The notes under the pieces were generated by a model. The model had not been told where the DNA came from and did no database searches. It worked only from the letters and a program-made list of their open reading frames with translations. This document shows, in pieces, positions 15,702-31,822 of a stretch of 64,000 nucleotides of DNA (its first letter is position 1; each line of letters opens with the position of its first letter). The stretch is from Burkholderiales bacterium (GTDB lineage: Bacteria; Pseudomonadota; Gammaproteobacteria; Burkholderiales; Burkholderiaceae_F), in contig JBBIST010000006.1 in the NCBI GenBank assembly GCA_037441125.1, positions 692 to 64,691 of the forward strand. Direction: 5' to 3'. Position numbers and translations under genes: made by a program.

Positions 15702-16880
15702 ATGATTCCACGACGGCTGATCTCCGCGCTCACTTCGGCCCTGAACGAGGCCCCGGCCGTGGCGTTGCTCGGACCGCGCCAGGTCGGCAAAACCACGCTG
15801 GCGCTCGATCTGGTCCAGACCCGCCCGGCGGTCTATCTCGACCTCGAATCCGAGGCCGATCGGGCCAAGCTTGCGGACCCCGAGCTGTACCTGTCGCAGC
15901 ATGAGGACAAGCTCGTCATCCTCGATGAGATCCAGCGCACGCCGCAGATCTTCCAAAGCCTGCGTGGCCTCATCGATGCCGGCCGGCGGCGCGGGCGGGG
16001 CAAGGGGCGCTTCCTGGTGCTGGGCTCGGCGTCGATCGATCTGCTCAAGCAATCGAGCGAGTCGCTCGCCGGGCGCATCCGCTATTTGGAGCTCGCCCCG
16101 TTCAATGCCGGCGAGGTCGGGGGCGGGCAAATCGACAAGCTCTGGCTGCGCGGCGGATTCCCCGAGAGCCTGCTGGCGAGTTCCGATGCCGCGAGCCTGC
16201 GCTGGCGGGTGGACTTCATCCGCACCTACCTCGAGCGAGACATTCCGCAGCTCGGGCCGCGCATTCCCGCCGAAACCCTGCGTCGCCTCTGGACGATGCT
16301 CGCCCATCAGCAGGGTGGCCTGCTCAACGCCGCGGCGCTCGCGCGGGCGCTGGCCGTCGATGGCAAGACGGCCGCCTCGTACCTGGATCTGCTCGTGGAC
16401 CTGCTGCTGGTGCGCCGCCTGGCGCCGTGGCACGGCAACGTCCGCAAGCGCCTGGTGAAGTCGCCCAAGGTCTACATCCGCGACAGCGGCCTGGTACACG
16501 CGCTGCTCGGGATCGGCGACCGCGAGGCGCTGCTCGCGCATCCGGTGGCAGGCGGGAGTTGGGAAGGCCTGGCGATCGAGTCGCTGATCGGCGCCGCGCC
16601 GAACGGTACCGAAGCGTTCTTCTTCCGCACAGCGGCCGGCGCCGAGATCGACTTGCTGCTGAAGCTTCGCGGTCAGCGTGCGCCCTGGGCGATCGAGGTC
16701 AAGCGCGGGCTCGCGCCGAAGATCGAACGCGGCTTCCATCTGGCCTGCGACGACGTGCGCCCCAGGCGACGCCTGGTCGTGTACAGCGGCGCCGAGCGCT
16801 TCCCGCTCGCAGAGAACGTCGAGGCGGTTTCGCTCGTCGACTTGTGCGCGGAGCTCGCCGCGGCAGGTTTCAGCGCTTAA
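15702..16880 (+). CDS. AAA+ ATPase with C-terminal PD-(D/E)xK-like module (DUF4143-type)
   Basis: Walker A LLGPRQVGKTTL, Walker B-like KLVILDEIQ, and C-terminal GAEIDLLLKLRGQRAPWAIEVKRG (E-x-D...E-x-K). Confidence 0.8.
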   Translation: MIPRRLISALTSALNEAPAVALLGPRQVGKTTLALDLVQTRPAVYLDLESEADRAKLADPELYLSQHEDKLVILDEIQRTPQIFQSLRGLIDAGRRRGRGKGRFLVLGSASIDLLKQSSESLAGRIRYLELAPFNAGEVGGGQIDKLWLRGGFPESLLASSDAASLRWRVDFIRTYLERDIPQLGPRIPAETLRRLWTMLAHQQGGLLNAAALARALAVDGKTAASYLDLLVDLLLVRRLAPWHGNVRKRLVKSPKVYIRDSGLVHALLGIGDREALLAHPVAGGSWEGLAIESLIGAAPNGTEAFFFRTAAGAEIDLLLKLRGQRAPWAIEVKRGLAPKIERGFHLACDDVRPRRRLVVYSGAERFPLAENVEAVSLVDLCAELAAAGFSA

Positions 16881-17042: not shown

Positions 17043-18287
17043 ATGAATATCATCCATGTCGTGAAGACACTGCCTCGGCTGGTCGATGACGCGCTCGCCG
17101 CGCGACTGCGCGTGATGCCGGCCGTGGTGCTCACCGGCGCGCGCCAGACCGGCAAGAGCACGTTGGTCGAAAAGCTCGTTCCGGGCGACCGGCGCTACCG
17201 CTCGCTCGACGACTTCGACGTGCGCGATGCGGCGCGCCGCGACCCCGAGGCCCTGCTGGGAGGCGCCGACCCGCTCACGCTCGACGAGGTCCAGCGCGAG
17301 CCAGACCTTCTGACCGAGGTCAAGCGCGCCATCGACCGCGACCGCCGGCCCGGGCGGTACCTCCTCACCGGCTCGGCCAACCTGCTGCTGATGCGGCAGG
17401 TGTCGGAGTCGCTGGCCGGCCGCGCGAGCTACCTCACGCTCTGGCCCATGACCCGCCGCGAGCAGCTCGGGCTCGGCCGCGCGGGGCGCTGGGACGAACT
17501 GCTGGCCACGCCCGAGGCGCAGTGGCGCGACCTCTTGGCGGCTGGGGATGACGCCGAGGAAGACTGGCAGGCGCTCGCGCTGCGCGGCGGCTTTCCCACG
17601 CCGGCGCTGCAGCTCAAGTCGCCGGCCGACCGCGCCATCTGGTTCGACGGCTACGTGCGCACCTATCTCGAACGCGATCTGCAGGACCTCGCCTCGATCA
17701 GCGCGCTGCCGGACTTCCGGCGCCTGATGCAGGCCGCCTGCCTGCGGCTCGGGCAGCTCCTCAACCAGACCGAGCTCGGCCGCGACGTCGGCCTGCCGCA
17801 GCCAACGGTACACCGCTGGCTCAACCTGCTGGAAACTTCGTATCTGCTCGTGCGACTGCCGGCCTACGCGGTGAACCGCAGCAAGCGGCTCGTCAAGTCG
17901 CCCAGGATCTACTGGGGCGACACCGGCGTCGCGCTGCACCTCGGCGCGCAACTCGGCCCATCAGCTCCCGCGGGCGCGCACCTGGAGAACCTGGTCTTGC
18001 ACGATCTCTCCGCCTGGCGCGATGCGCGCGTGGACCGCGTCGAACTCGCCTACTGGCGCACCACGATCGGCGAGGAAGTGGACTTCGTGATCGAGGTCGG
18101 CGGCAAGCTGCTGCCCATCGAGGTGAAGGCCACCTCGAAGCCGCGGCTGGCCGACTGCGCGCACCTGCGCACCTTCCGGCAGGAGTACGGGCGCAAGGCG
18201 CGCGCCGGGCTCCTGCTGCACACCGGTCGCACGGTCGAGTGGCTCACCCCCGACGTGCTGGCCGTGCCATGGTGGCGGGTGCTGTGA
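17043..18287 (+). CDS. AAA+ ATPase with C-terminal PD-(D/E)xK-like module (DUF4143-type), paralogue
   Basis: Walker A LTGARQTGKSTL, DPLTLDEVQ, and C-terminal GEEVDFVIEVGGKLLPIEVKATSKP. Confidence 0.8.
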   Translation: MNIIHVVKTLPRLVDDALAARLRVMPAVVLTGARQTGKSTLVEKLVPGDRRYRSLDDFDVRDAARRDPEALLGGADPLTLDEVQREPDLLTEVKRAIDRDRRPGRYLLTGSANLLLMRQVSESLAGRASYLTLWPMTRREQLGLGRAGRWDELLATPEAQWRDLLAAGDDAEEDWQALALRGGFPTPALQLKSPADRAIWFDGYVRTYLERDLQDLASISALPDFRRLMQAACLRLGQLLNQTELGRDVGLPQPTVHRWLNLLETSYLLVRLPAYAVNRSKRLVKSPRIYWGDTGVALHLGAQLGPSAPAGAHLENLVLHDLSAWRDARVDRVELAYWRTTIGEEVDFVIEVGGKLLPIEVKATSKPRLADCAHLRTFRQEYGRKARAGLLLHTGRTVEWLTPDVLAVPWWRVL

Positions 18288-18371
18288 TACTGGTCTTGCT
18301 GAACGGACCGTGCCCCGCGTAGCGCCCAAGGGACGAGCAGAGAGCACGACAAGGACTGGAAGCCTGCCCTC

Positions 18372-19925
18372 ATGATCACCGGCAACATCAAGAGCCAGAT
18401 CGACCAGATCTGGAACGCCTTCTGGTCCGGCGGCATCTCCAACCCGCTGGAGGTGATCGAGCAGATCACCTACCTGCTGTTCCTGCGCCGGCTGGACGAT
18501 CTGCACACGCTGGAGGAGAACAAGGCCGCCCGTCTCAAGAGGCCGATCGGGCACCGCGTCTACCCCGTGGGCCGGGACCCCAAGGGCCGCCCCTACGACG
18601 ACCTGCGCTGGTCGCGCTTCAAGCACTTCGCGCCCGGCGACATGTACACCGTGATCGGCGAGCACGTGTTCCCGTTCCTGCGCAACGAACTGGCCAGGAA
18701 CCACGGCGGCGACGACTCTACCTACGCGCACCACATGAAGGACGCGCGCTTCACCATCCCCACGCCGGCGCTGCTGGCCAAGGTGGTGGATCTGCTCGAC
18801 GCCGTGCCGATGGAGGACCGCGACACCAAGGGCGACGTCTACGAGTACATGCTCGGCAAGATCGCCACGGCCGGGCAGAACGGCCAGTTCCGCACGCCGC
18901 GCCACATCATCCGGCTGATGGTGGAGCTGACCGCGCCGCAACCCGGTGACGTGATCTGCGACCCGGCCTGCGGCACCGCGGGCTTCCTGGTCGCTGCCGG
19001 CGAGCACCTGCGCGAGCGCCACCCGAACATCCTGCGCGACGCGAAGCTGCGCGAGCACTTCCACCACCGCATGTTCCACGGCTTCGACTTCGACAACACG
19101 ATGCTGCGCATCGGCAGCATGAACATGCTGCTGCACGGCGTGGAGAACCCCGACATCCGCTATCGCGACTCGCTGGCGCAGGACCACGCCGGCGAGGAAG
19201 AGAAGTACACGCTGGTTCTGGCCAATCCGCCCTTCGCCGGCAGCCTCGACTACGAGAACACCGCCAAGGACCTGCTGCAGATCGTCAAGACCAAGAAGAC
19301 CGAGCTGCTGTTCCTCGCGCTCTTCCTGCGATTGCTGAAGCCCGGCGGCCGCGCCGCGGTGATCGTGCCCGACGGCGTGCTGTTCGGCTCCAGCACCGCG
19401 CACAAGCAACTGCGCCGGATGCTGGTCGAAGACCAGAAGCTCGACGCCGTGGTCAAGCTGCCCGGCGGCGTGTTCCGGCCCTACGCCGGCGTGTCCACCG
19501 CGATCCTGCTCTTCACCAAGACCAACTCCGGCGGCACCGACCAGGTCTGGTTCTACGACGTCGAGGCCGACGGCTGGAGCCTCGACGACAAGCGCACGCC
19601 GCTGTTGCCCGAAGACAAGCTCGGCCCGGTGCCGCGCACTGCGCTCGTGGCGGATGAGCACGCGAAGAACAACCTGCCCGACGTGCTGGCGCGCTGGGCC
19701 GGGCGCAACGGCGCCGAGCGCGAACGCCCGCGCACCGCGCAGAGTTTCTGCGTGCCGAAGGCCAACATCGCCGCGCAGGGCTACGACCTCTCGCTCAACC
19801 GCTACAAGGAAGTCGTGCACGAGGCGGTCGAGCACCGCGCGCCGAAGGAGATCCTCGCCGAGCTGGCGAAGCTGGAGGAGGAGATCCAGCGGGGGATGAA
19901 GGAGCTGGAGGGGATGCTGAAGTGA
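18372..19925 (+). CDS. hsdM: Type I restriction-modification system, DNA methyltransferase subunit M
   Basis: N-terminal HsdM_N (IWNAFWSGGISNPLEVIEQITYLLFLRRLD), FRTPRHI, AdoMet motif DPACGTAGFL, catalytic LANPPFAG. Confidence 0.95.
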   Translation: MITGNIKSQIDQIWNAFWSGGISNPLEVIEQITYLLFLRRLDDLHTLEENKAARLKRPIGHRVYPVGRDPKGRPYDDLRWSRFKHFAPGDMYTVIGEHVFPFLRNELARNHGGDDSTYAHHMKDARFTIPTPALLAKVVDLLDAVPMEDRDTKGDVYEYMLGKIATAGQNGQFRTPRHIIRLMVELTAPQPGDVICDPACGTAGFLVAAGEHLRERHPNILRDAKLREHFHHRMFHGFDFDNTMLRIGSMNMLLHGVENPDIRYRDSLAQDHAGEEEKYTLVLANPPFAGSLDYENTAKDLLQIVKTKKTELLFLALFLRLLKPGGRAAVIVPDGVLFGSSTAHKQLRRMLVEDQKLDAVVKLPGGVFRPYAGVSTAILLFTKTNSGGTDQVWFYDVEADGWSLDDKRTPLLPEDKLGPVPRTALVADEHAKNNLPDVLARWAGRNGAERERPRTAQSFCVPKANIAAQGYDLSLNRYKEVVHEAVEHRAPKEILAELAKLEEEIQRGMKELEGMLK

Positions 19926-21118
19926 GCTGCATTGCGCCCTCGGCGAAACTCTCTGACGTAGCTGACTTGAACCCGCCGCTCCCAGCTTCGCTGAGTGATG
20001 GCGACGACGTGTCCTTTATGCCAATGGCGGCGGTGGACGCCGATTCGGTGACCGCGGTTGATCGCGAGACACGCCTCTATTCAGAGGTCAGCAAGGGGTA
20101 CACGCCGTTCCTCGACGGGGATTTGCTGGTCGCGAAGATCACGCCTTGCTTCGAGAACGGAAAGATCGCGCAAGCGCGCCTCTCGCGCCGTTATGGCTTC
20201 GGATCGACCGAGTTTCACGTTGTCAGGCCGCGCGATGATCGCGTCGACGCGCGGTACCTAGTGCACTTCCTGCGTCAAGACTGCATCCGTAGGCAAGGTG
20301 AGTGCCGGATGACCGGGAGCGCCGGGCAACGCCGCGTTCCTGAACACTTCCTCACTGATCTGACCATCCCACTTCCACCCCTCCCCGAGCAGCGGCGGAT
20401 TGCAGAGATCCTGGACAAGGCGGACGCGCTGCGGGCCAAGCGCCGCGCCGCCCTCGCCCAGCTCGACACCCTCACCCAATCCATCTTCCTCGACATGTTC
20501 GGCGACCCCGCCACGAATCCGAAGGGGTGGCCGGTGGTATCGATCGCAAACATCTGCGAGGTGAAGGGCGGCAAGCGCTTGCCAAAGGGAGAGGAATACT
20601 CGTCGGTTCCCACGCCGTTTCGGTACATCCGAGTTGTGGACCTAAAGGCAGGGCGCGTCGACGAATCCGTGCTTGTCTACTTGAAACCCGAGATTCAAGC
20701 CGAGATCGCGCGCTACGTCGTCAACACAGGCGATGTGATCATCTCGATCGCCGGCTCGATCGGCTTGGTTGCGCCCGTTCCGCAATCGTTGGATGGAGTG
20801 AACCTCACTGAGAATGCCGCGAAGCTCGTGCCGCGAAACTCCGGGCACTACGAGGCCGAGTACTTGGCAAAATGTCTTGAGACCCACCACGCGCAGGGAC
20901 AAATCGGATCGCACATCGGACAGGTGACGATCGGAAAGCTGGCCCTATTCCGAATCGAGAAGCTAAAGGTTCCGCTCCCCGCGATCGAGCTTCAGCGCGA
21001 GTTCGTACGCCGCGCCGCGGAGGTCGAAACACACGGCATCGCGCTGAAGGAAGCTGGATCTCGTTTGGAGGAACTGTTTGCTTCCCTTCAGCACCGCGCG
21101 TTCCGGGGGGAGCTGTAG
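19922..21118 (+). CDS. hsdS: Type I restriction-modification system, specificity subunit S
   Basis: Two target-recognition domains separated by the conserved helices LPPLPEQRRIAEILDKADALRAKRRAALAQLDTLTQSIF and LPLPAIELQREFVRRAAEVE...LFASLQHRAFRGEL. GTG start overlaps the hsdM stop. Confidence 0.9.
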   Translation: MSCIAPSAKLSDVADLNPPLPASLSDGDDVSFMPMAAVDADSVTAVDRETRLYSEVSKGYTPFLDGDLLVAKITPCFENGKIAQARLSRRYGFGSTEFHVVRPRDDRVDARYLVHFLRQDCIRRQGECRMTGSAGQRRVPEHFLTDLTIPLPPLPEQRRIAEILDKADALRAKRRAALAQLDTLTQSIFLDMFGDPATNPKGWPVVSIANICEVKGGKRLPKGEEYSSVPTPFRYIRVVDLKAGRVDESVLVYLKPEIQAEIARYVVNTGDVIISIAGSIGLVAPVPQSLDGVNLTENAAKLVPRNSGHYEAEYLAKCLETHHAQGQIGSHIGQVTIGKLALFRIEKLKVPLPAIELQREFVRRAAEVETHGIALKEAGSRLEELFASLQHRAFRGEL

Positions 21119-21120
21119 CC

Positions 21121-21951
21121 ATGCGCGGCGAGTTCATCGGCGTGTGGTCCGAGACCTGGCGCGAGATCTGGCTGCCGCTGGTCGACCATGAGGGCGTCCC
21201 CGAGGACATCTTCTGCGAGCTGTACCGCGCGCTGGCACCGGCGCTGAAGAACAAGCCGTCAGTCGAAGCCCTGGCGGACATCATCGATAACCCCGCGCAG
21301 AGCCGAGAGGCATTCGAGAAGACGGGTGCGAACGACTTCGCCGGTAAGCGCGCTCTCGTGGCGTTTCTCGAGGCGGCGCACTCCGCGCTCGACGAGCTGG
21401 CCGGCGACGAGCTTGCCAATCGCTACTTCAACCTGCTCGCGGGTTTCGTCGACAAGTTCAGCCTGCGCTACGACCTTCGCCGCCCCTGCACCTTGTGTCC
21501 GACGCTGCCCGGCGTGTTCGCGAGCCTGGTGCGCGACCTGCGCGTGCTCGCCAGCCAGGATGCGCACCTCGATGCGCTGATGAAGGACTTCGAGAACGCG
21601 GTGCGCGACCTGCGACACGACTGCTCCGACGGGCGCATCAAGACCTGCATCCAGAAGCAGGTGAACCTGCTGGAGGCTATCGGGCGAACAACGCCCGGCA
21701 TCACCGAGGGCGAGTTGAGCGGTATCTGCAACCAAGTCACCACGTGGCCGCACGGTGCGATCAAGGCGTCGTTGAAGAACCTATACGGATTCGCTTGCGA
21801 CTACCCGGGTATTCGGCACGGTGGGAACCCCGCAGGTGCGCTGCGCGCCGTCGACATGCGCGACATGGTGGCCATGTCGATCTTGCTGGCGGGCTACACG
21901 CCTTACCTCGCTGCGCAGCTAAACGCGGATTCGGTCTACCGGGGCGCATGA
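21121..21951 (+). CDS. Hypothetical protein (276 aa), restriction-linked, no recognisable domain
   Basis: Strong GC3 codon bias across the full length. ATG lies 2 nt after the hsdS stop. I found no motif I can assign; notable strings are CTLCP and DYPGIRHGGNP. Confidence 0.6.
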   Translation: MRGEFIGVWSETWREIWLPLVDHEGVPEDIFCELYRALAPALKNKPSVEALADIIDNPAQSREAFEKTGANDFAGKRALVAFLEAAHSALDELAGDELANRYFNLLAGFVDKFSLRYDLRRPCTLCPTLPGVFASLVRDLRVLASQDAHLDALMKDFENAVRDLRHDCSDGRIKTCIQKQVNLLEAIGRTTPGITEGELSGICNQVTTWPHGAIKASLKNLYGFACDYPGIRHGGNPAGALRAVDMRDMVAMSILLAGYTPYLAAQLNADSVYRGA

Positions 21952-21952
21952 G

Positions 21953-22513
21953 ATGGCAAGCGGACCAACGATCGAGAATGCGGGGCCGTTGGCCATCCAC
22001 GAGGTTCGCTTCAAGGGCGGCATCCTTCGGCGTGGCTTCTGGCTCTATGTCTGGGAGGTAACGCCACCAGACCGGACGCCGCTGTACTACGTCGGCCGCA
22101 CCGGCGACAGTTCGTCGACGAACGCACAGTCGCCGTTCAACCGCATGGGCCAGCATCTGGGCTTCGCCGAGAACAGCAACATGCTGCGCCGGCATCTCAC
22201 GCAGCACGGTGCCGAGCCCGAGACGGGCGCGTTTCGGCTGATCGCGCTCGGCCCGATCGAGCAGGAGGCCAAGGGGGCGCCCGGCCGGCGGGCGCACGAT
22301 CAGCGGCGCGACCTAGTCGCGGCGATGGAAATGGCACTCGCCAACCTGCTTGAGTCGTCGGGGCTCAAGGTGATGAACCACGTGGCGTCGCGCAAGCCGT
22401 TGGACGAAGCACGTTTTGCGCAAGTGCGGGCAGCCTTTGCCAAGGCGTTTCCGCAGCTTGCCGCTGCTGCCACGCCGGTTATCGATGAGCCCGGCAAACC
22501 GAATCGGCGCTGA
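21953..22513 (+). CDS. Hypothetical protein (186 aa), possible GIY-YIG-superfamily nuclease
   Basis: ATG lies 1 nt after the upstream stop. WLYVWEVTPPDRTPLYYVGRTGD...SPFNRMGQHL...AAMEMALANLLESSGLKVMNHV fits the order and spacing of GIY-(x10)-YxG...R...E...N. This is motif reading only. Confidence 0.55.
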   Translation: MASGPTIENAGPLAIHEVRFKGGILRRGFWLYVWEVTPPDRTPLYYVGRTGDSSSTNAQSPFNRMGQHLGFAENSNMLRRHLTQHGAEPETGAFRLIALGPIEQEAKGAPGRRAHDQRRDLVAAMEMALANLLESSGLKVMNHVASRKPLDEARFAQVRAAFAKAFPQLAAAATPVIDEPGKPNRR

Positions 22514-22712
22514 TCGGCGAATTGCAACCTCGACGAGTCGTTGTCGTGGGCGCCGCCATCGGCAAATGGCCAGACCCATGCAACTATCTGATCTGCAAGC
22601 GTCTCTCGACAGCGCGATTGCAACCGACGGGTCGCTGGTTGCAATCCCCGAGCAATTCCGCCCCGAATCGACGACCCCGATCGGACGGCCCACCCTACAA
22701 AAAGCCCGACCA

Positions 22713-22742
22713 TTGATTTACGTTAGATGCATAACCTAAAAT
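22713..22742 (+). promoter_or_regulatory. Putative sigma70-type promoter for fic (and possibly hsdR)
   Basis: TTGATT (22713-22718), 18-nt spacer, TAAAAT (22737-22742), in the only AT-rich stretch of the island, 33 nt upstream of the fic ATG. Confidence 0.4.
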
Positions 22743-22774
22743 TACGTCGGGCCTTGTTATAGGTTCCCCGTCCG

Positions 22775-23941
22775 ATGCACCGACCCGCTCCCGGCCACTA
22801 CGTCACCGTCACGACGGCCGGCGAGCCGTTCCGGGCCTTCGTGCCGCTGCCGCTGCCGCCCGATCCGCCGGTCGTGTGGTCGGCCGCATTGCGGCGGCGC
22901 TTCGACGCGGCGCTGGTCGCGCTGGGGCGGCTGGACGCGGTCTCCGCGCTGCTGCCCAACGCGGCTTTGCTGCTCTACAGCTTCGTGCGCAAGGAGGCCG
23001 TGCTGTCCTCGCAGATCGAGGGCACGCAGTCCTCGCTGGCGGACCTGCTGCTCTACGAAATCGACGAACAGCCGGGCGTGCCGGTGGACGACGCGCGCGA
23101 GGTCAGCCGCTGCGTGGCCGCGCTCGAGCGCGGCCTCACGAAGCTGCGCGGCGGGCTGCCGCTTTGCACGCGCCTGCTGTGCGAGATGCATGAGGTTCTG
23201 ATGAACCACCCCGGCGGCCGGGGCAAGACACCCGGGGAGGTGCGCCGCTCGCAGGTCTGGATCGGCGGCACGCGGCCCGGCAACGCGGCCTTCGTTCCGC
23301 CGCCGGCCGACACAGTGCCGGATGGCCTGGCGTCTCTCGAGCGCTTCCTCAACGACGATCCCGAGCCCGTGCCGCCGCTGATCAAGGCGGCGCTCGCCCA
23401 CGTGCAGTTCGAGACCATCCACCCGTTTCTCGACGGCAACGGGCGCATCGGGCGTCTGCTGATCGTTCTGCAACTGGTGGCCGACGGCGTACTGCGCGAG
23501 CCGATGCTGTATCCGAGTCTGTTCTTCAAGACCCATCGGGCGCTGTACTACGAGCTGCTCAACGAGGTGCGCCTGCGCGGCGACTGGGAGCGCTGGCTCG
23601 ACTTCTTCGCCGAGGGCATCGAGGCGAGCGCGACGCAGGGCGTGTCGACCGCGAATGCGTTGCTCGCGCTGGTCAACGCCGATCGCGACCGCATCGCCGG
23701 CCTGGGCCGCGCGGCGGCTTCGGCGTTGGTGGTGCACCAGGCGCTGCAGCGCCAGCCGATCGCCACCTCGGCCGCGCTGGTCAAGGCCACGCAGCTCACG
23801 CCGGCCACCGTCAACAAGTCGCTCGCGCATCTCGAGCGCATCGGCATCGTCGCTGAAGTCACGAACCGGCAGCGCGGCCGCGTGTTCAGCTATCGCAAGT
23901 ACGTGGAGGAACTGGCTGCCGAACTGGAGGCGCCCGCGTGA
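22775..23941 (+). CDS. Fic-family protein (AMPylase-type), class II with N-terminal inhibitory helix
   Basis: Active-site [12 protein letters not shown] matches HxFx(D/E)GNGRxxR. N-terminal SSQIEGT matches the (S/T)xxxE(G/N) inhibitory motif. C-terminal winged-helix-like tail. Confidence 0.9.
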
Positions 23942-24002
23942 GCCCGAAGGGCCGCCCCGAGAGCGAACAGCCCCGCAGCGCGTCAGCGCGGAGGGTTGTC
24001 CC

Positions 24003-27000
24003 GTGAGCCAGTTCGCCTTTCTGCAGGGTGAGTGGGCGGCAGTGTTCGAGTCCGCTGCGCGGGCCGAGACGGCCGTACACGCCGACCCGCGCACGGCGTG
24101 CTTCTACGCGCGGCGCGCGCTCGAACTGGCGGTGAACTGGGCCTACAAGCACGATGCCTCGCTGAAGCTGCCGTACCAGGACAACCTGTCGGCGCTGATC
24201 CACGAGCCGAGCTTCAAGGCAGCCGCCGGCGAGGCGGTGTTCAGCAAGGCGCGGGTCATCAACACGCTGGGCAACCGTGCCGTGCACGGGCATCGCGCGA
24301 TTCCACCCGACGACGCGCTGGTCGCGGTGCGCGAGCTGTTCCACGTGGCGTACTGGCTTGCCCGCACCTACAGTCGCGCGGCGCGACCGGCGCCGGGCCT
24401 GGTCTTCGACGCGAGTGCGTTGCCGAAGGCGGCACCGGCGCGCGGGCAGACCGCCGAGCAGTTGCAGCAGCTCGAAGCGGGCCTGCGCGAGCGCGACGAG
24501 AAGCTCGCCGCCTTGCTGGCCGACAAGAGCACGCTCGACGAGGAACTCAAGCGTCTGCGCGCCGAGGTGACGGCGGCCAAGCAGGCCGCAGCGGCGCAGC
24601 CAGACACCCACGACTACTCCGAGGCCGAGACCCGCGACTACTTCATCGACCTCTTGCTGAAGGAGGCCGGCTGGCCGCTCGATCAATCGCGGGACCGCGA
24701 GTTCGAGGTCAGCGGCATGCCGAACAAGCAAGGCAAGGGCTTCGTCGACTACGTGCTCTGGGGCGACGACGGCAAGCCGCTCGGGCTCGTGGAAGCCAAG
24801 CGCACCCGGCGCGATGCGCGCGCCGGCCAGCAGCAGGCCAAGCTGTACGCCGACTGCCTCGAGCGCCAGTTCGGCCAACGCCCGCTGATCTTCTACTCGA
24901 ACGGCTACGAGCACTGGCTCTGGGACGACACGCGCTATCCGCCGCGCGCGGTGCAGGGCTTCTACAAGAAGGCCGAGCTGGAGCTTGCGATCCAGCGGCG
25001 CAGTACGCGCAAGCCGCTGGCCGCGGGCGAGATCAATTCGGCAATCGTCGAGCGCTACTACCAGACGCGCGGCATCCGGCGCATCGCCGAGGCCTTCGAA
25101 CGCGACCACGACCGCAAGGCGCTGGTGGTGATGGCCACCGGCGCCGGTAAGACTCGCACGGTGATCGCGCTCGCCGATCTGCTGATGCGCTGCAACTGGG
25201 TCAAGCGCGTGCTGTTCCTCGCCGACCGCTTGGCGCTGGTCAACCAGGCGGTGAACGCCTTCAAGCGTCATCTGCCCGACGCCTCGCCGGTGAACCTGGT
25301 CACCGAGAAGGATGCCGAGGGACGGGTCTTCGTCTCCACCTATCCGACGATGATGGGGCTGATCGACGAGCCGCGAGACGGGCAGCGGCGCTTCGGCGCC
25401 GGCCACTTCGATCTGGTGATCGTCGACGAGGCGCACCGCTCGGTGTTCCAGAAGTACCGCGCCATCTTCGACTACTTCGACGCGCTGCTGGTCGGGCTCA
25501 CGGCCACGCCGAAGGACGAGGTGGACCGCAACACCTACAGCCTGTTCGACCTGGAGAACGGCGTGCCGACCGACGCCTACGGACTCGACGAGGCGGTGCG
25601 CGACGGCTTCCTCGTGCCGCCGAAGGCCGTGTCGGTGCCGCTGAAGTTCCAGCGCGAGGGGATCAAGTACGACGAACTGTCCGAAGACGACAAGGATCAG
25701 TGGGACGCGCTGGAGTGGGACGAAGACGGCAACGTCCCCGATCGCGTGGAGGCCGAGGCGGTCAACCAATGGCTGTTCAACAAGGACACGGTCGACAAGG
25801 TGCTGGAGCATCTGATGACGCGGGGCTTGACGGTGGCCGGCGGCGACCGGCTCGGCAAGACGATCCTGTTCGCCAAGAACCAGCACCACGCCGAGTTCAT
25901 CGCCGAGCGCTTCAACGCCAACTACCCGCACCACAAGGGCGAGTTCGCGCGCGTGATCACGTTCAAGACCGAATACGCGCAGAGCCTGATCGACAACTTC
26001 TCGGCCCGGGACAAGGCACCCCACATCGCCATCTCGGTGGACATGCTCGACACCGGCATCGACATCCCCGAGGTCGTGAACCTGGTGTTCTTCAAGCTGG
26101 TGCGCTCGAAGACCAAGTTCTGGCAGATGCTCGGCCGCGGCACGCGCCTGTGCCCGGACCTGTTCGGGCCGGGAAGGCACAAGGAGTTCTTCTGCGTCTT
26201 CGACTACTGCCAGAACCTGGAGTACTTCAGCCAGAACCTCCCCGCCACCGAGGGCGCGCTGGGTGAATCGCTCGGCAAGCGGCTGTTCGATGCCCGGCTG
26301 GAGCTGATCGGCGAGCTGGACAAGAAGTTGGCCGTAGCCGACCGCCAGACAGCGCGCGAGTCACGGGCGCCGCCGCATGGACACCCGGAATCGGACGACG
26401 AGGTGCGCGCGCAGGTCGCAGCGCTGCTGCAAAGCGAAGTGGCCGGCATGAACCTCGACAACTTCGTCGTGCGGCCGCGGCGGCGCATCGTCGAGCACTA
26501 CGCCAAGCCCGAGGCCTGGACCGTGCTGTCGCCCGAAGCGCGCTCGGAGCTGTCGCAACAGGTCGCGGGTCTGCCGTCGGAACTCGACCCGGAAAGCGAG
26601 GAAGCGAAGCGCTTCGACCTGCTGGTATTGAACCTCCAGCTCGCGATGCTGCGGTCAGAGCCGGGCTTCGCTCGCCTGCGCGATCGAGTCAAGGAGCTTG
26701 CCGGTCTGCTGGAGGAGAAGTCGGCGATTCCGATGGTGCGCGACCAGATGGCGCTGATCCAGGACGTGCAGACCGACGAGTGGTGGCAGGACGTGACCGT
26801 GCCGATGCTCGAGGCGATGCGCCGGCGCCTGCGTGATCTGGTCAAGCTCATCGAGAAGCAGAAGCGCAAGCCCATCTACACCGACTTCGAGGACGAGATG
26901 GGCGGCGAGACCGCTGTCGAGCTGCCGGGCTTTGGCCACGGCACCGACCACGCGAAGTTCCGCGCCAAGGCCCGGGCCTTCCTGCGCTCGCATCAGGACC

Positions 27001-27419
27001 ACATCGCGATTCACAAGTTGAGGATGAACAAGGCGTTGACCGCTGCCGATCTCGCCGAACTTCAACGCATGCTCGCCGAGAGCGGCGTTGGCGGCGCGCA
27101 GGACATCCAGCGCGCCGCCGAGGAGTCCCAAGGGCTGGGGCTCTTCGTGCGCTCACTGGTCGGTCTTGACCGCCAGGCGGCAAAGGAAGCCCTGGCCGGG
27201 TTTCTCAACGGCAAGTCTCTTGGCGCCAACCAGATCGAGTTCGTGAACCTGATCGTGGACCATTTGACCGAGCACGGTGTGATGGACGCGGCGATGCTCT
27301 ACGAGTCCCCATTCACGGACCTGACGCCGCGCGGGCCGGACGGGTTGTTCAGCTCGGCGCAAGTGGATGAGTTGCTGGCCGCGATCGAACAGGTGCGCCA
27401 GACGGCCATTGCGGCGTGA
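24003..27419 (+). CDS. hsdR: Type I restriction endonuclease subunit R with N-terminal DUF4145-like domain
   Basis: GTG 24003, preceded by GGAGGG. N-terminal DUF4145-like region ([12 protein letters not shown]...LGNRAVHG), a coiled coil, PD-(D/E)xK (GFVDYVLWG...LVEAKR), helicase motifs [10 protein letters not shown] and VIVDEAHRS, and a C-terminal EcoEI-R-like tail (LYESPFTDL). Confidence 0.9.
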
Positions 27420-27503: not shown

Positions 27504-28931
27504 TCACTTGCCGATGCAAAACCTGCCGAAGATCCGCCCCAGCAGATCGTCGGCCGAGAACTCGCCGGTGATCTCGGCCAGCGCTTCGGCCGCCAGCCGC
27601 AGCTCCTCGGCGAAGAGTTCCAGTTGCGCGTTGCCGTAGCCGTGCTCGAGGTCGGCGCGTGCGGCGGCATCGGCCAGGTGCGACTGCGCGCGGCGCAGCG
27701 CTTCGAGCTGGCGCTCGCGCGCCAGGAACACGGTCTCGCCGCGCGTGTCGGCCTCCCAGCCGGCCACGCGCAGCAGCGCCGCCTGCAGCGCCTCGAGCCC
27801 GGCGCCGGTCAGCGCCGACAGCCGGATCTCGTCGCCCGGTGCGCGATCGTCGGCGGCGCTCGCCGCCTCGCCGGTGAGGTCGATCTTGTTGCGCACGGTG
27901 AGCAGCGGCGCGCCTGCTGCTGCGCGTGCCTGCACCAGCGCCAGCGCGTGCGCGTCGGCGGCCGGGTGGCTGGCATCGACCAGGTGCAGCACGACGTCGG
28001 CGCGCTCGACTTCGGTGAGCGTGCGCGCGATGCCGATGCGCTCGACCTCGTCGGCAGTCTGGCGCAGGCCGGCGGTGTCGATGATGTTCAGTGGAATGCC
28101 GTGCACCTGCACCGCCTGCGCGATGCGGTCGCGCGTGGTGCCGGCCACCGGCGTGACGATCGCCACTTCCTCGCCGGCAAGCGCGTTGAGCAGGCTCGAC
28201 TTGCCGACGTTGGGCGCGCCCACGAGCACGACGTTGAGCCCGGCGCGCAGCAGCGCGCCCTGCTGCGCGCGCTTGAGTAGCGCCGCAAGCTGCGTGCGGA
28301 TCGCAGCCAGCCGGCCACGCGCATCCGCAGCCTGCAGGAAGTCGATCTCCTCCTCGGGGAAGTCGAGTGTCGCCTCGACCAGCGTGCGCAGCTCGATCAC
28401 CGCCTCGGCGAGCGCGTGCACCGCGCGCGAGAACTCGCCGGCGAGCGAGCGGTTGGCCGAGCGCACCGCGGCCGCGGTCGAGGCGTCGATCAGGTCGGCG
28501 ACCGCCTCGGCCTGCGCCAGGTCGAGGCGGTCGTTGAGGAAGGCGCGGCGCGTGAACTCGCCCGGCTGCGCCAGCCGCAGGTCACGCAGCGCCTCGAGGC
28601 CGCGCGCCGCCTCCAGGCAGCGCGCCACCATCATCTGCAGCACCACCGGCCCGCCGTGGCCGTGCAGCTCGAGCACGGTCTCGCCGGTGGCCGAGTGCGG
28701 CGCCGGGAAGAGCAGCACCAGCCCTTGGTCGATCGCGTTGCCGTCGCCGTCGTGAAAGGTCGCGTACAGCGCGCGCCGCGGTTCGATGCGCTGCGCCCGT
28801 GCGCCGAGCAGCGCTGCCGCAAGCGGCGCCAGGTCGGCCTGCGCGCCGCCGCTGACACGCACGATGCCGATGCCGCCGCGGCCGGGCGCGGTGGCGATGG
28901 CGACGATCGGATCGCGGTCGGAGGCAATCAC
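27504..28931 (-). CDS. mnmE: tRNA uridine-5-carboxymethylaminomethyl modification GTPase MnmE
   Basis: [23 protein letters not shown]-domain [14 protein letters not shown] / DTAGLR / NKIDL, and C-terminal FCIGK. Start placed at GTG 28931 ([10 protein letters not shown]); the longer ORF to 29033 is unlikely. Confidence 0.9.
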
Positions 28932-29021
28932 GGCGAACGGCGCGCGTACAGCGCAGGCATCGGCACAACCTAGCACAGCGGCGCGCGTGGCCCGCCGGCA
29001 GCCACACCGTAGACTGGCCGC

Positions 29022-29327
29022 ATGCAGCATCACGAAGACCCGTTGATCCGGTTCATGCGGCCGCTGGCCGGCGTGCTCGCGGCCACCTTGGCCAACGTGC
29101 TGCTGGCGGCGCTGATCGGCGGCGCGCTGCCGTTCGAGTACGCGGGTCGCGCCTGGGCCTACACCGGGCTCGTGCTGTACGTGATCGTCGGCGCCGTGGT
29201 TGTGTTTCGGCTCAGCGCCGAGGGCGAGCGCGAGTTCTCGCCGGCGCGTGTGCTCAAGTGGGCGCTGTCGATCTGGCTCTGGCCGGCGCTGCTCGCCGCC
29301 AGCCGTCTGCGCCGGCCGGGCGGTTGA
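29022..29327 (+). CDS. Hypothetical small membrane protein
   Basis: 101 aa with 2-3 hydrophobic helices, divergent from mnmE. No homology was assessed. Confidence 0.4.
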
Positions 29328-29355
29328 GCCGCTGCGGCCCGCTCGCGCTATCCGC

Positions 29356-31092
29356 TCAGCCGACCGGCTTGGCGGCCTGCACCTGGCGCATCACGTACCA
29401 CTGCTGCGCGATCGAGATCACGTTGTTGACCAGCCAGTAGAGCACGAGTCCGGCCGGGAACAGGAAGAACATGATGCCGAAGATGAACGGCATCGCCGCC
29501 ATCACCTTCGCCTGCACCGGGTCGGGCGGCGTCGGGTTGAGCTTGAACTGCACCCACATGCTGGCCATCATCAGCACCGGCAGGATGAACCAGGGGTCGG
29601 GGGTGGCGAGATCGGAGACCCAGAGCATCCACGGCTGGTTGCGCATCTCGACGCTCGCCAGCAGCACCCAGTACAGGGCGATGAACACCGGGATCTGCAC
29701 CAGGATCGGCAGGCAGCCGCCGAGCGGGTTGATCTTCTCGGTCTTGTACAGCTCCATCATCGCGGTGTTGAGCTTCTGCTTGTCGTCGCCGTACTTCTCG
29801 CGCAACGCCATCAGGCGCGGCGTGACCTCCTTCATCTTCGCCATCGACTTGTAGCTGGCCGCCGACAGCGGATAGAACACCGCCTTGACCAGCACCGTCA
29901 GCAGGACGATCGCCCAGCCCCAGTTGCCGAGCAGGTCGTGGAACAGTTGCAGCAGCCAGAACAGCGGCTTGGAAAGAAAGGTGAGCCAGCCGTAGTCGAC
30001 CACCAGGTCGAGCCCGGGCGCCACCGCCTCGAGCTGCTCCTGGATCTGCGGTCCGACCCACAGCGTGGCGCGGCTGCTGGCGCTCGCCCCGGGCGCGATC
30101 GACTCGATCGGCGTCACCGCCGACACCGAGTACAGGTTCGGCGCGTCCTGCGCCGTACGCACCTCGCGGTAGCGGCCGGGCTCGAGCACCCAGGCGGACA
30201 CGAAGTAGTGCTGGATCATCGCGATCCAGCCGTCCTTGGCCTCGCGCACATGCTCCTGGCGCGCGCGTTCGATGTCGCCGAAGGCAACCTTCTGGAACCG
30301 GTGCGCTTCGCTGTAGACCGCCGGGCCGGTGAAGGTGTAGTAAAGGAAGCTCTCGCCCGCAGGCGCGTTGCCGTCGCGCACCAGTTGCAGGTACAGCGAC
30401 GGCGCGACCGCGGTCTGGCCCAGGTTGCGGATCTCGTGCCGGACCTCGACGTCGTACTGGCCGCGCCGGAAGACGTAGGTCTTGAGCACCTGCAGGCCGC
30501 CGGCGCTGGCCTCGAACTTCACTTCCAGCACGTCCTGGCCCGGCGCCAATTGGCGCGGACCCGGCAACAGCGTGAACGGCGTCAGGTGATTCGGGAAGCG
30601 CACGTCGGCGGCGCCGGTCAGTCCGGTGCGCGCCAGGTAGACGCGCTCCTGGGTCCAGTCGAGCAGGACGACGTTGGCCTGTGGGTCGTGCCGCTTGCCG
30701 GTGATGAGCCCGATCAGTCCGGCCGCGGTCCAGTCGGGCGCGACCCGGTGCTGCAGCAGCTCGACGCGCGCCAGCACAGCGCCGGTCGGATCGAGGTCGG
30801 CGCGCACGACGTCGGTCTCGATGCGGATGCGCTCGACCGCGGCCACCGGCGCCGGCGTGACCTTGGGGTCGGCAACGGCCGGTACCGCCGCCCCAGGCAC
30901 TGCTGCCGGCGCCGGCACTCCGTTGACCACCGCTGCGGGCGGCGGCGCGACCGGGTCGGCAGCGACCGCCTTCTTCTCGGCCGGCGGCGGCGCGAACAGC
31001 GCCGGCTGGCCCTGGTGGCGCATCCAGGCGTCCCACAGGAACACCAGCGACATGCCGAAGATGATCAACAGGATCGTGCGCTGGATGTCCAT
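29356..31092 (-). CDS. yidC: Membrane protein insertase YidC
   Basis: [23 protein letters not shown]..., a large periplasmic domain, and the conserved C-terminal core ([47 protein letters not shown]). Start at ATG 31092. Confidence 0.95.
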
Positions 31093-31130
31093 GACGGGCG
31101 TCGTTGAGCGAAGGCGGCGGTCTATGCGGG

Positions 31131-31430
31131 TCAGTTCAGGGGTCGGCCGTCGGCCGTGCCGGCGGTCGAGCCGGGCGTTGCTTCGGTGCGCGCGTGACAC
31201 CAGCAGCGCCAGCGAAACTGCGCCGGCACCGGGTCGACGCCGCCGCGGCCGTACGGATGGCAGCGCGCCAGTCGTGCGAGCGTCATCCAGGTGCCGCGCG
31301 CCGCACCGTGGGTCTCGATCGCCTCGATCGCGTACATCGAGCAGGTCGGCCAGAAGCGGCAGCTCGTGCCAAGCCACGGCGACAGCAGAAAGCGGTAGGC
31401 GCGCAGCAGCGCCAGCAGCAGCCACTTCAT
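31131..31430 (-). CDS. yidD: Membrane protein insertion efficiency factor YidD
   Basis: [35 protein letters not shown]...[13 protein letters not shown]. Confidence 0.85.
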
Positions 31431-31822
31431 GCGGCCACCCCGCCTGCGCCCTGGCGCAGGGCACCGGCCAGTTGCGCCAGCAGCGCGTCGGCCTCGGCAC
31501 GCAGTTCGCGCTTGAAGCGCGCCCGACTCATCAGATCGGCGGACGGCACCGGCGCCTTGAGCCGCAGCACGAGGTCGACCCTGCGTTCGCCGGCGGCCGC
31601 GTCGAGTGTCGCCAGTGCATGGCGCGCGGCCTCGCGCAACACGCGCTTGACCAGCGAGCGCTCGACCGCCCGCCGCGCCTGACGCTTGCCCGCGGTCACG
31701 CCGACGCGGACCACGCCGATCGGCGGCCGGGATTCGCTTGCTTCCATTGCGACGATGCGAGCCTGAACAGCCAGATGGCCGCGGCCGCCGCGCCAGACCA
31801 CCGCCGACCGGGCGGCGGCCAC
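31427..31822 (-). CDS. rnpA: Ribonuclease P protein component
   Basis: [30 protein letters not shown] is the RNR-like motif region. Coordinates use the first canonical start (GTG 31822). The conserved N-terminus appears to extend upstream to about 31879, where no canonical start exists (see findings). Confidence 0.75.

Follow-up and report, generated by a model that had tools for sequence, protein, structure and literature searches.

Do two uncharacterised genes that are chained to the methylase and specificity genes of a restriction-modification (R-M) operon form a defence system of their own? This question is raised by a stretch of DNA of 64,000 nucleotides (nt) from a Burkholderiales bacterium (assembly GCA_037441125.1, contig JBBIST010000006.1, positions 692 to 64,691), which we analysed at its full length and call the window. 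Type I R-M enzymes are three-subunit machines, and in the window the genes hsdM and hsdS are followed on the plus strand by a gene for a protein of 276 amino acids (aa), here termed A276 (21121..21951), and by one for a protein of 186 aa, termed B186 (21953..22513). A preliminary description, made from the sequence alone, had proposed that the two proteins are the sensor and the effector of one defence system coupled to the R-M complex. Homologue searches, alignments, structure models and a survey of related loci gave a different answer: A276 occurs as an obligate passenger in type I R-M operons, with a tie to hsdS/hsdM, B186 is a nuclease-like gene that moves on its own, and the two do not make up a conserved pair.

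Genomic distribution of A276

A276 belongs to a large family. At 90% identity, 2159 clusters are homologous to it (E <= 1e-3), and an exhaustive search of 1.84 billion representative proteins gave 401 related clusters at 50% identity. Taking one genome per species, our scan gave 48 genome loci, to which we added one plasmid, one viral contig (viral collections contained A276 at 1 locus) and nine distant relatives. All A276 loci examined are type I R-M loci. The 48 genome loci cover ten or more bacterial phyla and two genera of methanogens, with hosts among the Alpha-, Beta- and Gammaproteobacteria, Myxococcota, Acidobacteriota, Nitrospira, Binatia, Gemmatimonadales, Rhodothermales, Chloroflexia, Actinomycetes, Verrucomicrobiae and Entotheonella as well as in the archaea Methanoregula and Methanospirillum.

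The position of the gene is just as constant. hsdS lies directly 5´ of A276 in 44 of the 45 loci with enough upstream sequence, and an hsdR of the same family lies 3´ of it in all 40 loci with enough downstream sequence. The gap between hsdS and A276 is 4–5 nt in nearly all 48 loci (measured between tblastn matches, stop codon included), and the gap from A276 to hsdR is 4 nt in 10 loci. The megaplasmid of Ruegeria sp. TM1040 may serve as an example, encoding a methyltransferase, a subunit S, the "hypothetical protein" WP_011537151.1, a DUF262/DUF1524 (GmrSD) protein and a helicase-family HsdR. The nine distant relatives (24–39% identity) were looked up singly and are all located in type I operons. 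With X standing for A276, their gene orders include M-S-X-R (L142, L145 and L153; related loci are given by L numbers), M-X-S-R (L154), R-M-S-X with a different, shorter HsdR family (L156), X-M (L141) and S-FRG-X (L139), and stop and start codons overlap at L143, L145, L154 and L156. Since the gene order varies among the relatives, the constant partner of A276 is the hsdM/hsdS part of the operon and not hsdR.

The whole hsdM-hsdS-A276-hsdR operon is present in Methanoregula (L024) and Methanospirillum (L038). In both methanogens HsdM is 83% and HsdR 76–77% identical to the window proteins, which indicates a recent transfer between the domains. At L042 (10549-11761) the A276 homologue is split by an insertion of about 1.2 kb, and the hsd genes at L009, L025 and L044 are fragmented into numerous frames, representing either pseudogenes or long-read assembly errors.

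B186 occurs mostly apart from A276

B186 has 1669 homologous clusters at 90% identity (E <= 1e-3). Co-occurrence was counted over 46 of the A276-seeded genome loci, and full-length B186 was found in 4 of them, with a decayed remnant in three more. In the opposite direction, A276 was present in 11 of 80 metagenome loci seeded with B186; the others were 20 type I operons in which B186 alone follows hsdS, 36 other contexts and 13 loci that were too short. The sensor/effector pair of the preliminary description is thus not borne out: co-occurrence is confined to these 4 and 11 loci, and B186 stands alone after hsdS in at least 20 loci and is also found in unrelated defence neighbourhoods. The neighbourhood survey that the same description had called for came out in two ways, with A276 inside type I R-M at every locus examined but the homologues of A276 and B186 mostly apart from each other.

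Among operons with B186 but without A276, an annotated case is a Thioclava plasmid on which the order is M, S, B186 and R, with B186 starting 1 nt after hsdS. Two viral contigs contain R-M-S-B186 with another type I family. Viral contigs contributed 4 B186 loci among 2.9 million. Elsewhere the neighbours of B186 are a PLD/DrmC-like nuclease (8 loci), GmrSD, an MmeI-type enzyme (on an Agrobacterium plasmid), a Schlafen-type helicase, DUF2779 and an RNase T-like exonuclease.

The PLD nuclease is a protein of about 385–420 aa whose gene lies on the strand of B186 and adjoins it (L006 3018-4705, L066, L069, L074, L075, L084, L089, L095 and L120); the one in L006 was identified by PADLOC as DrmC-like (E 6.5e-147). 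B186 and the PLD nuclease may constitute a two-gene module distinct from the arrangement in the window. At three loci (L041 10946-11829, L043 and L045) a stretch of about 0.9 kb without an intact open reading frame (ORF) is located 3´ of the A276 homologue and is similar to residues 114–166 of B186. It precedes GmrSD in L041 and L045 and hsdR in L043, and judged by this similarity it is probably a decayed copy of B186.

The A276 protein family

Both proteins had been described as uncharacterised, and our searches agree with this, since Pfam, NCBIfam and PHROGs gave no match for either of them. This includes scans of 53 diverse members for A276, taken one by one, and of 63 for B186. For A276, a profile search of PDB sequences returned only designed helical repeats, which are compositional matches. 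The AlphaFold2 (AF2) model, built with a 101-sequence alignment, is all-alpha, with a mean predicted local distance difference test score (pLDDT) of 77.5 and a predicted template modelling score (pTM) of 0.51. A Foldseek search of this model against the PDB found nothing with E < 0.4.

Three motifs are conserved: FSLRYDLRRPCTLCPTLPG at residues 113–131, WPH at 209–211 and DYPGIRHGGN-x5-LR-x5-D at 227–248. Five residues (E185, F224, H233, R242 and D248) are invariant down to 24% identity, and W17, Y117, P210, H211, Y222, D227, P229, G230, R232, G235 and Y262 are nearly so. From this pattern the C-terminal-half residues E185, H211, D227, R232, H233, R242 and D248 are a candidate active or contact site.

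Several possible identities of A276 were considered and rejected. Among the best 150 of the 401 representatives the longest has about 380 residues, showing that A276 is a standalone protein there, without fusions to Hsd subunits; as long fusions are absent from these 150, the idea that it is a domain split off an Hsd subunit was abandoned. A C-terminal HEPN domain was rejected as well, because a conserved Rx4-6H is lacking and hhalign gave a probability of 0.3% against the DUF4145 domain of HsdR. Arg is conserved in columns 116, 232 and 242 and His in columns 211 and 233, and none of the R/H pairs is spaced by 4–6 residues. Weak matches to HepT-like (0.059) and SWT1 (0.077) were each seen in 1 of 53 members. 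The Walker A motif GxxxxGK[ST] was absent from all 101 close and all 53 distant homologues, and no AAA or ABC Pfam model matched. Fic-like (HxFxxGNGR), HD-domain and CCHH-zinc readings were weighed by eye and dropped, as their spacings did not fit and C123, C126 and C176 are not kept in distant members.

A276 is an accessory rather than a core component of the enzyme, as can be seen from sister operons that lack it, from its faster divergence and from its lineage-specific insertions and tails. On the plasmids pA26BH1 of Cryobacterium and pNHAL01 of Nitrosococcus the order is directly M-S-R, without A276, and HsdR is 51–55% identical; many further operons of the same R-M family hold B186 in place of A276. 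Where HsdM is 64–95% identical, the identity of A276 is 33–85%, so A276 diverges faster than HsdM and HsdR. The identities of A276 are correlated less with those of HsdM (Spearman rho 0.57) and HsdR (0.52) than those of HsdM and HsdR are with each other (0.88). At some loci nearly identical HsdM and HsdR accompany a very different allele of A276, as in L039 (HsdM 95%, HsdR 93%, A276 58%).

A variant of 368–381 aa (L028, L029, L030, L035, L037 and L038) has an insertion of about 90 residues, variable in sequence, after about residue 45 in the N-terminal domain. Many homologues of 316–331 aa (P0241-P0315, L024, L031, L034, L036 and L039) end with a linker rich in Ala, Pro and Ser and a conserved amphipathic basic C-terminal helix, for example GLLERLAFWRRKR and SIWKRLGSWAGKFVTRG. 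This end resembles a membrane-targeting tail. A276 of the window has neither the insertion nor the tail.

B186 as a GIY-YIG-like protein

The evidence on B186 comes from residue conservation, the AF2 model, the structure database BFVD and its genomic contexts. In an alignment of 63 homologues with 58–88% identity, Y32 (in LYVWE), Y46 and G48 (YYVGRTGD), R64 and H68 (FNRMGQH) and N142 (VMN) are invariant in 63 of 63, as is R49, and E126 (AAMEKALA) is present in 62 of 63. The residue order of GIY-YIG proteins (Tyr, Tyr-x-Gly, Arg, His, Glu, Asn) can therefore be followed through the alignment. The AF2 model (pLDDT 87, pTM 0.82) has the order beta-beta-alpha-alpha-beta-alpha as in the GIY-YIG fold, and the top matches among the predicted viral structures of BFVD are Seg-type GIY-YIG homing endonucleases, with a probability of 0.94–0.96 and an E of 7e-3, at a template modelling (TM) score of only about 0.3. 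Many further GIY-YIG entries rank below them. Beyond a helical tail of about 45 residues the model has no recognisable DNA-binding module. PADLOC gave no match for B186, nor did a profile search of PDB sequences.

With moderate confidence, we regard B186 as a divergent stand-alone nuclease domain of the GIY-YIG type that has kept all the catalytic-type residues, and as independently distributed cargo. The guess that it is a GIY-YIG nuclease, made in the preliminary description, is thus moderately supported by the residues, the order of the AF2 model and BFVD, but not by the Pfam models or by folds in the PDB.

The host operon and its cargo

On re-reading the sequence, every junction coordinate given for hsdM-hsdS-A276-B186 proved exact. 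hsdM (18372..19925, plus strand) encodes the methyltransferase subunit (Pfam N6_Mtase 1.2e-61 and HsdM_N; PADLOC MTase_I 4.5e-193), and its stop codon overlaps the GTG start of hsdS by 4 nt, reading GTGA at 19922-19925. hsdS (19922..21118, plus strand) encodes the specificity subunit, with Pfam Methylase_S matching in two stretches (1.3e-25) and PADLOC Specificity_I at 1.8e-73. A spacer of 2 nt separates the end of its TAG at 21118 from the ATG of A276 at 21121, and a Shine-Dalgarno-like run, GGGGGGAG, is located directly 5´ of this ATG. The TGA of A276 (21949-21951) is followed after 1 nt by the ATG of B186 at 21953, which ends at 22513. That A276 and B186 are co-expressed stoichiometrically with the methylase and specificity subunits, as the preliminary description states, is an inference from these junctions.

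hsdR (about 24003..27419, plus strand) encodes the restriction/translocase subunit with DUF4145, HSDR_N, ResIII/helicase and EcoEI_R_C domains (Pfam); its GTG start at 24003 was deduced from where homology begins. DUF4145 is N-terminal, the EcoEI_R_C match has an E of 8e-27, and by this architecture HsdR is type IB-like. It is 55–94% identical to the HsdR of every related locus. With an N6_Mtase/HsdM_N methyltransferase, an HsdS with two Methylase_S domains and an HsdR motor, all matched by Pfam and PADLOC, the host is the genuine type I R-M operon that it had been taken for. The best reading of the locus is that of a mobile R-M operon, type IB-like, in which three accessory genes with separate origins are nested: A276, B186 and fic.

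The interval between A276 and hsdR is a cargo hotspot and the locus a cargo-bearing R-M island. In relatives of the window this slot contains, always on the operon strand, a Schlafen/AlbA_2 plus HATPase_c_4 protein (7 loci), a GmrSD-type protein (5), Fic (3 and the window), a DUF4143 ATPase (2), and also a PLD/DrmC-like nuclease, AbiEi/AbiEii and a T5orf172/MUG113 protein. The last is seen in Tateyamaria (L040 10894-11763), where the slot after A276 is occupied by a 289-aa protein with a C-terminal T5orf172/MUG113 domain. We take these Pfam families to belong to the GIY-YIG clan; if so, L040 presumably holds a second, unrelated cargo of the GIY-YIG type at the same position.

In the window, B186 is followed by a non-coding gap of 261 nt (22514..22774, plus strand), which we read, scanned for promoters and aligned with L001 and L048. 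A sigma-70-like site, TTGATT-18-TAAAAT at 22713-22742, is the sole one found in 18000-24300, in agreement with the earlier view that fic lies behind a promoter-like gap of its own. A perfect 9-bp inverted repeat, ATTGCAACC-N11-GGTTGCAAT, is located at 22617-22645, and a third copy of ATTGCAACC is found 90 nt upstream at 22521-22529. The repeat may act as an operator, form an RNA hairpin or mark the end of a cassette. Both the repeat and the third copy are part of a segment of about 200 nt 3´ of B186, which L001 shares and which is missing from L048, where B186 is missing too. fic itself (22775..23941, plus strand) encodes a SoFic-like Fic/DOC protein with a C-terminal winged-helix domain (Pfam Fic_N 5.6e-23, Fic 9.9e-21; PADLOC SoFic 2.1e-110); with NCBIfam SoFic it scores 149 bits, below the 550-bit cut-off. 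Its upstream region (22700-22775), TTGATTTA...CTAAAAT...CTTGTTATAGGTTCCCC, is common to the window, L001 and L048. As loci share this region whether or not they have B186, transcription of fic is probably independent of hsdMS, and from the sequence we regard it as a cargo cassette with its own promoter-like region.

Upstream of hsdM two genes for DUF4143/AAA_14 ATPases, both PADLOC candidates PDC-S01, are arranged in tandem on the plus strand. One (15702..16880; Pfam DUF4143 1.3e-44, AAA_14 4e-27; PDC-S01 9e-91) is a flank of the island outside the hsd operon proper, and the other (17043..18287; Pfam DUF4143 1.8e-36; PADLOC 2.9e-113) lies directly 5´ of hsdM. A DUF4143 gene 5´ of hsdM is also seen in L004 and L033, matching the layout of the window, and in L019 and L034 a close homologue lies instead within the operon, in the interval between A276 and hsdR. 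On the other side, directly 3´ of hsdR, the minus strand contains at 27504-31500 an ORF for a GTPase-like protein of 509 aa ending in ...FCIGK and a large membrane-insertase-like ORF. These were read as candidate mnmE and yidC; if this is correct, the island adjoins the conserved mnmE-yidC region of the chromosome. A search for island boundaries found no tRNA genes and no meaningful flanking repeats.

Interpretation of the locus

What, then, is the most plausible role of the two genes? Our best explanation, which we judge to have about an even chance of being right, is that they are two independent accessory defence genes and that A276 probably acts via the methylase core by a logic like that of PrrC, without PrrC ancestry. 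PrrC is, to our knowledge, so far the sole well-understood dependent passenger of type I R-M. A276 would be produced together with the HsdM2-HsdS core, bind this methyltransferase core and act as an R-M-dependent accessory, most likely as a guard or back-up that is silent as long as R-M is intact and is switched on when a phage disables it, comparable to PrrC and EcoprrI. B186 would cut nucleic acid as an independent effector, and is one of many cargo genes entering the slot, beside Schlafen/AlbA_2, GmrSD, Fic, DUF4143, PLD and AbiE genes.

Several points weigh against this explanation. The loci were found via A276 itself, and about 60 loci were sampled out of thousands. For A276 no activity, enzymatic or binding, can be named, with no match in Pfam, NCBIfam, PHROGs or the PDB, no Walker A motif and no conserved Rx4-6H, and its AF2 model is only moderate, with the two most conserved motifs, FSLRYDLRRPCTLCPTLPG (113–131) and DYPGIRHGG (227–235), in low-confidence loops. 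For B186, Foldseek found no match in the PDB at E < 0.4, the BFVD matches are weak, and the Pfam models GIY-YIG, T5orf172 and MUG113 match 0 of the 63 members at E <= 10. The obligate linkage of A276 would fit a regulatory or assembly role equally well. Finally, the 1-nt junction between A276 and B186 is kept in the closest relatives (L001, L053, L054, L056 and L076), and a functional partnership specific to this lineage is possible.

A role of A276 as a regulatory or assembly subunit of the R-M enzyme, which might for example delay or limit the loading of HsdR once the operon has entered a new host (restriction alleviation or establishment control) or position the complex in the cell, is the main rival and seems to us somewhat unlikely. 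It would account for the obligate linkage and close coupling to hsdS/hsdM, and for the 4-nt gap or overlap that also joins A276 to hsdR in the simplest loci, an arrangement in which translation of HsdR would follow that of A276. The operon moves among very distant hosts including archaea, in which proteolytic control of HsdR by the host could not be assumed, A276 has no catalytic motif that can be named, and in many homologues the flexible linker and amphipathic basic C-terminal helix look like a membrane tail. But sister R-M operons do without A276 or have B186 instead, A276 is not located 5´ of hsdR in the R-M-S-X and X-M orders, and the window protein lacks the C-terminal tail. Moreover, A276 evolves faster than HsdM and HsdR, partly uncoupled from them and with insertion and tail variants, which is more like an arms race than like an assembly factor. 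A further possibility, which we consider unlikely, is that A276 is an obligate fourth component of type I R-M with a new fold, which would dock on HsdM2-HsdS, monitor its integrity and turn lost restriction into a second response, with B186 recruited as output in the lineage of the window. Such a component would sense, for example, DNA-mimic or peptide anti-restriction proteins; if this is true, a PrrC-like guard has been made from entirely different parts, across Bacteria and Archaea.

The other explanations concern B186 or both genes together. If B186 were a selfish, free-standing homing endonuclease gene of the GIY-YIG type, which spreads by copying itself to the junctions between genes in defence operons and is not a defence effector, this would explain why the best structural matches of B186 are free-standing Seg-type homing endonucleases of phages, why B186 is patchy at exact junctions of otherwise syntenic operons (L064 compared with L013/L015, window/L001 compared with L048) and why about 200 nt of its own 3´ sequence travel with it. 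We nevertheless regard this as decidedly unlikely, as no DNA-binding module is recognisable beyond the helical tail, the neighbours are diverse defence genes and not one target site, cargo that is no endonuclease inserts equally neatly into the slot, and B186 is very rare in viral contigs. One two-gene R-M-coupled system of an A276 sensor and a B186 GIY-YIG effector is very improbable. The conserved 1-nt junction, the location of B186 directly 3´ of A276 wherever both are present and its nuclease-like character speak for it, but the distribution largely refutes it: the two families do not co-vary, each gene is found alone after hsdS in many operons, and B186 lies beside PLD, GmrSD, MmeI and Schlafen-helicase genes without A276. 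Chance open frames or decaying remnants, which GC-rich DNA with its many long spurious ORFs on both strands might suggest, are refuted. Both genes have homologous clusters conserved across phyla and are therefore real genes, with thousands of full-length homologues of 25–96% identity in which invariant residues, length and position are kept.

Part of this picture was known before. That defence genes are embedded in type I R-M operons is established, and the sister family of A276, PDC-S32, is already listed as a candidate. New are the strictness and the phylogenetic breadth of the linkage between A276 and hsdS/hsdM, which persists across gene orders, the absence of a detectable structural relative of A276 in the PDB, and the recognition of B186 as an uncatalogued GIY-YIG-like family of defence islands. 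With about two thousand clusters, found only with R-M and bound to hsdS/hsdM through four gene orders in both domains, A276 is a strong candidate partner of the enzyme that has so far gone unrecognised. A second guard that is structurally unrelated to PrrC would tell if it is a general strategy to guard the restriction enzyme, and the cluster E185/H211/D227/H233/R242/D248 offers direct targets for mutation. B186 adds a small and widespread family to the inventory of defence islands. The locus also calls for caution in the automated annotation of defence systems, as adjacent coupled genes can be misread as a system.

Comparison with known systems

B186 resembles the GIY-YIG superfamily (I-TevI/Seg, the N-domain of UvrC, T4 endonuclease II and Eco29kI) in the predicted order of its strands and helices and in Tyr32, Tyr46-x-Gly48, Arg64-x3-His68, Glu126 and Asn142. 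The spacings R-x3-H and E-x15/16-N are also similar to what we take to be R27/H31 and E75/N90 of I-TevI. In contrast to the superfamily, B186 has a longer loop from the second strand to the Arg helix and no attached DNA-binding or other domain, and the gene is located in defence operons and not in an intron, phage or repair context.

The closest catalogued relative of A276 is PDC-S32 of PADLOC, a single-gene family of about 280–285 residues. PDC families are described as untested candidates nominated by their embedding in BREX, DISARM or type I R-M (Payne et al., 10.1101/2024.01.29.577857), and embedding in type I R-M fits A276. The match of A276 from the window to the PDC-S32 hidden Markov model is weak and partial (E 6.4e-6, residues 174–241). 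The model is matched by 52 of 53 diverse A276 relatives, with a best E of 3.1e-15, in the conserved C-terminal WPH...DYPGIRH region, so that homology in the C-terminal half is credible on the aligned sequences. Since the matches are weak and partial, A276 is a sister branch and not a clear member of PDC-S32. The remark that the pair is not recognised as any named system is consequently true only in part, given this weak similarity to a candidate.

EcoprrI keeps PrrC latent, and a phage anti-restriction peptide triggers it (PMC1484252, PMC2610378); with few exceptions, PrrC is found embedded in type I R-M (10.1101/2024.01.29.577857). In PrrC and RloC, the N-terminal domain is an ABC-type NTPase and the C-terminal one a ribonuclease (PMC3025547). 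Like PrrC in the prr locus of the type IC enzyme EcoprrI, A276 is a single accessory gene nested between hsdS and hsdR. Unlike PrrC and RloC, it has no P-loop (0 of 154), no conserved Rx4-6H and no Pfam match, is about 120 residues shorter, and is all-alpha without a fold match. As A276 fails every structural criterion of PrrC, it is an analogue by position and logic and not a homologue.

Accessory immunity genes nested among hsd genes include DarTG2 in the RRDM island of EPEC, GmrSD-like genes in VPI-2 of Vibrio and the rlo genes of Campylobacter (PMC12255303; 10.1101/2024.04.04.588119). The small upstream repressor RptR (PMC12255303) was considered as well and is unrelated. The nested architecture of these loci is the same as that of the locus in the window, and the preliminary description had rightly placed both genes among the defence-embedded genes in the tradition of PrrC and rlo. 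What distinguishes A276 is its fidelity: the other cargo genes of R-M loci are also widespread outside them, whereas A276, in the loci examined, never is.

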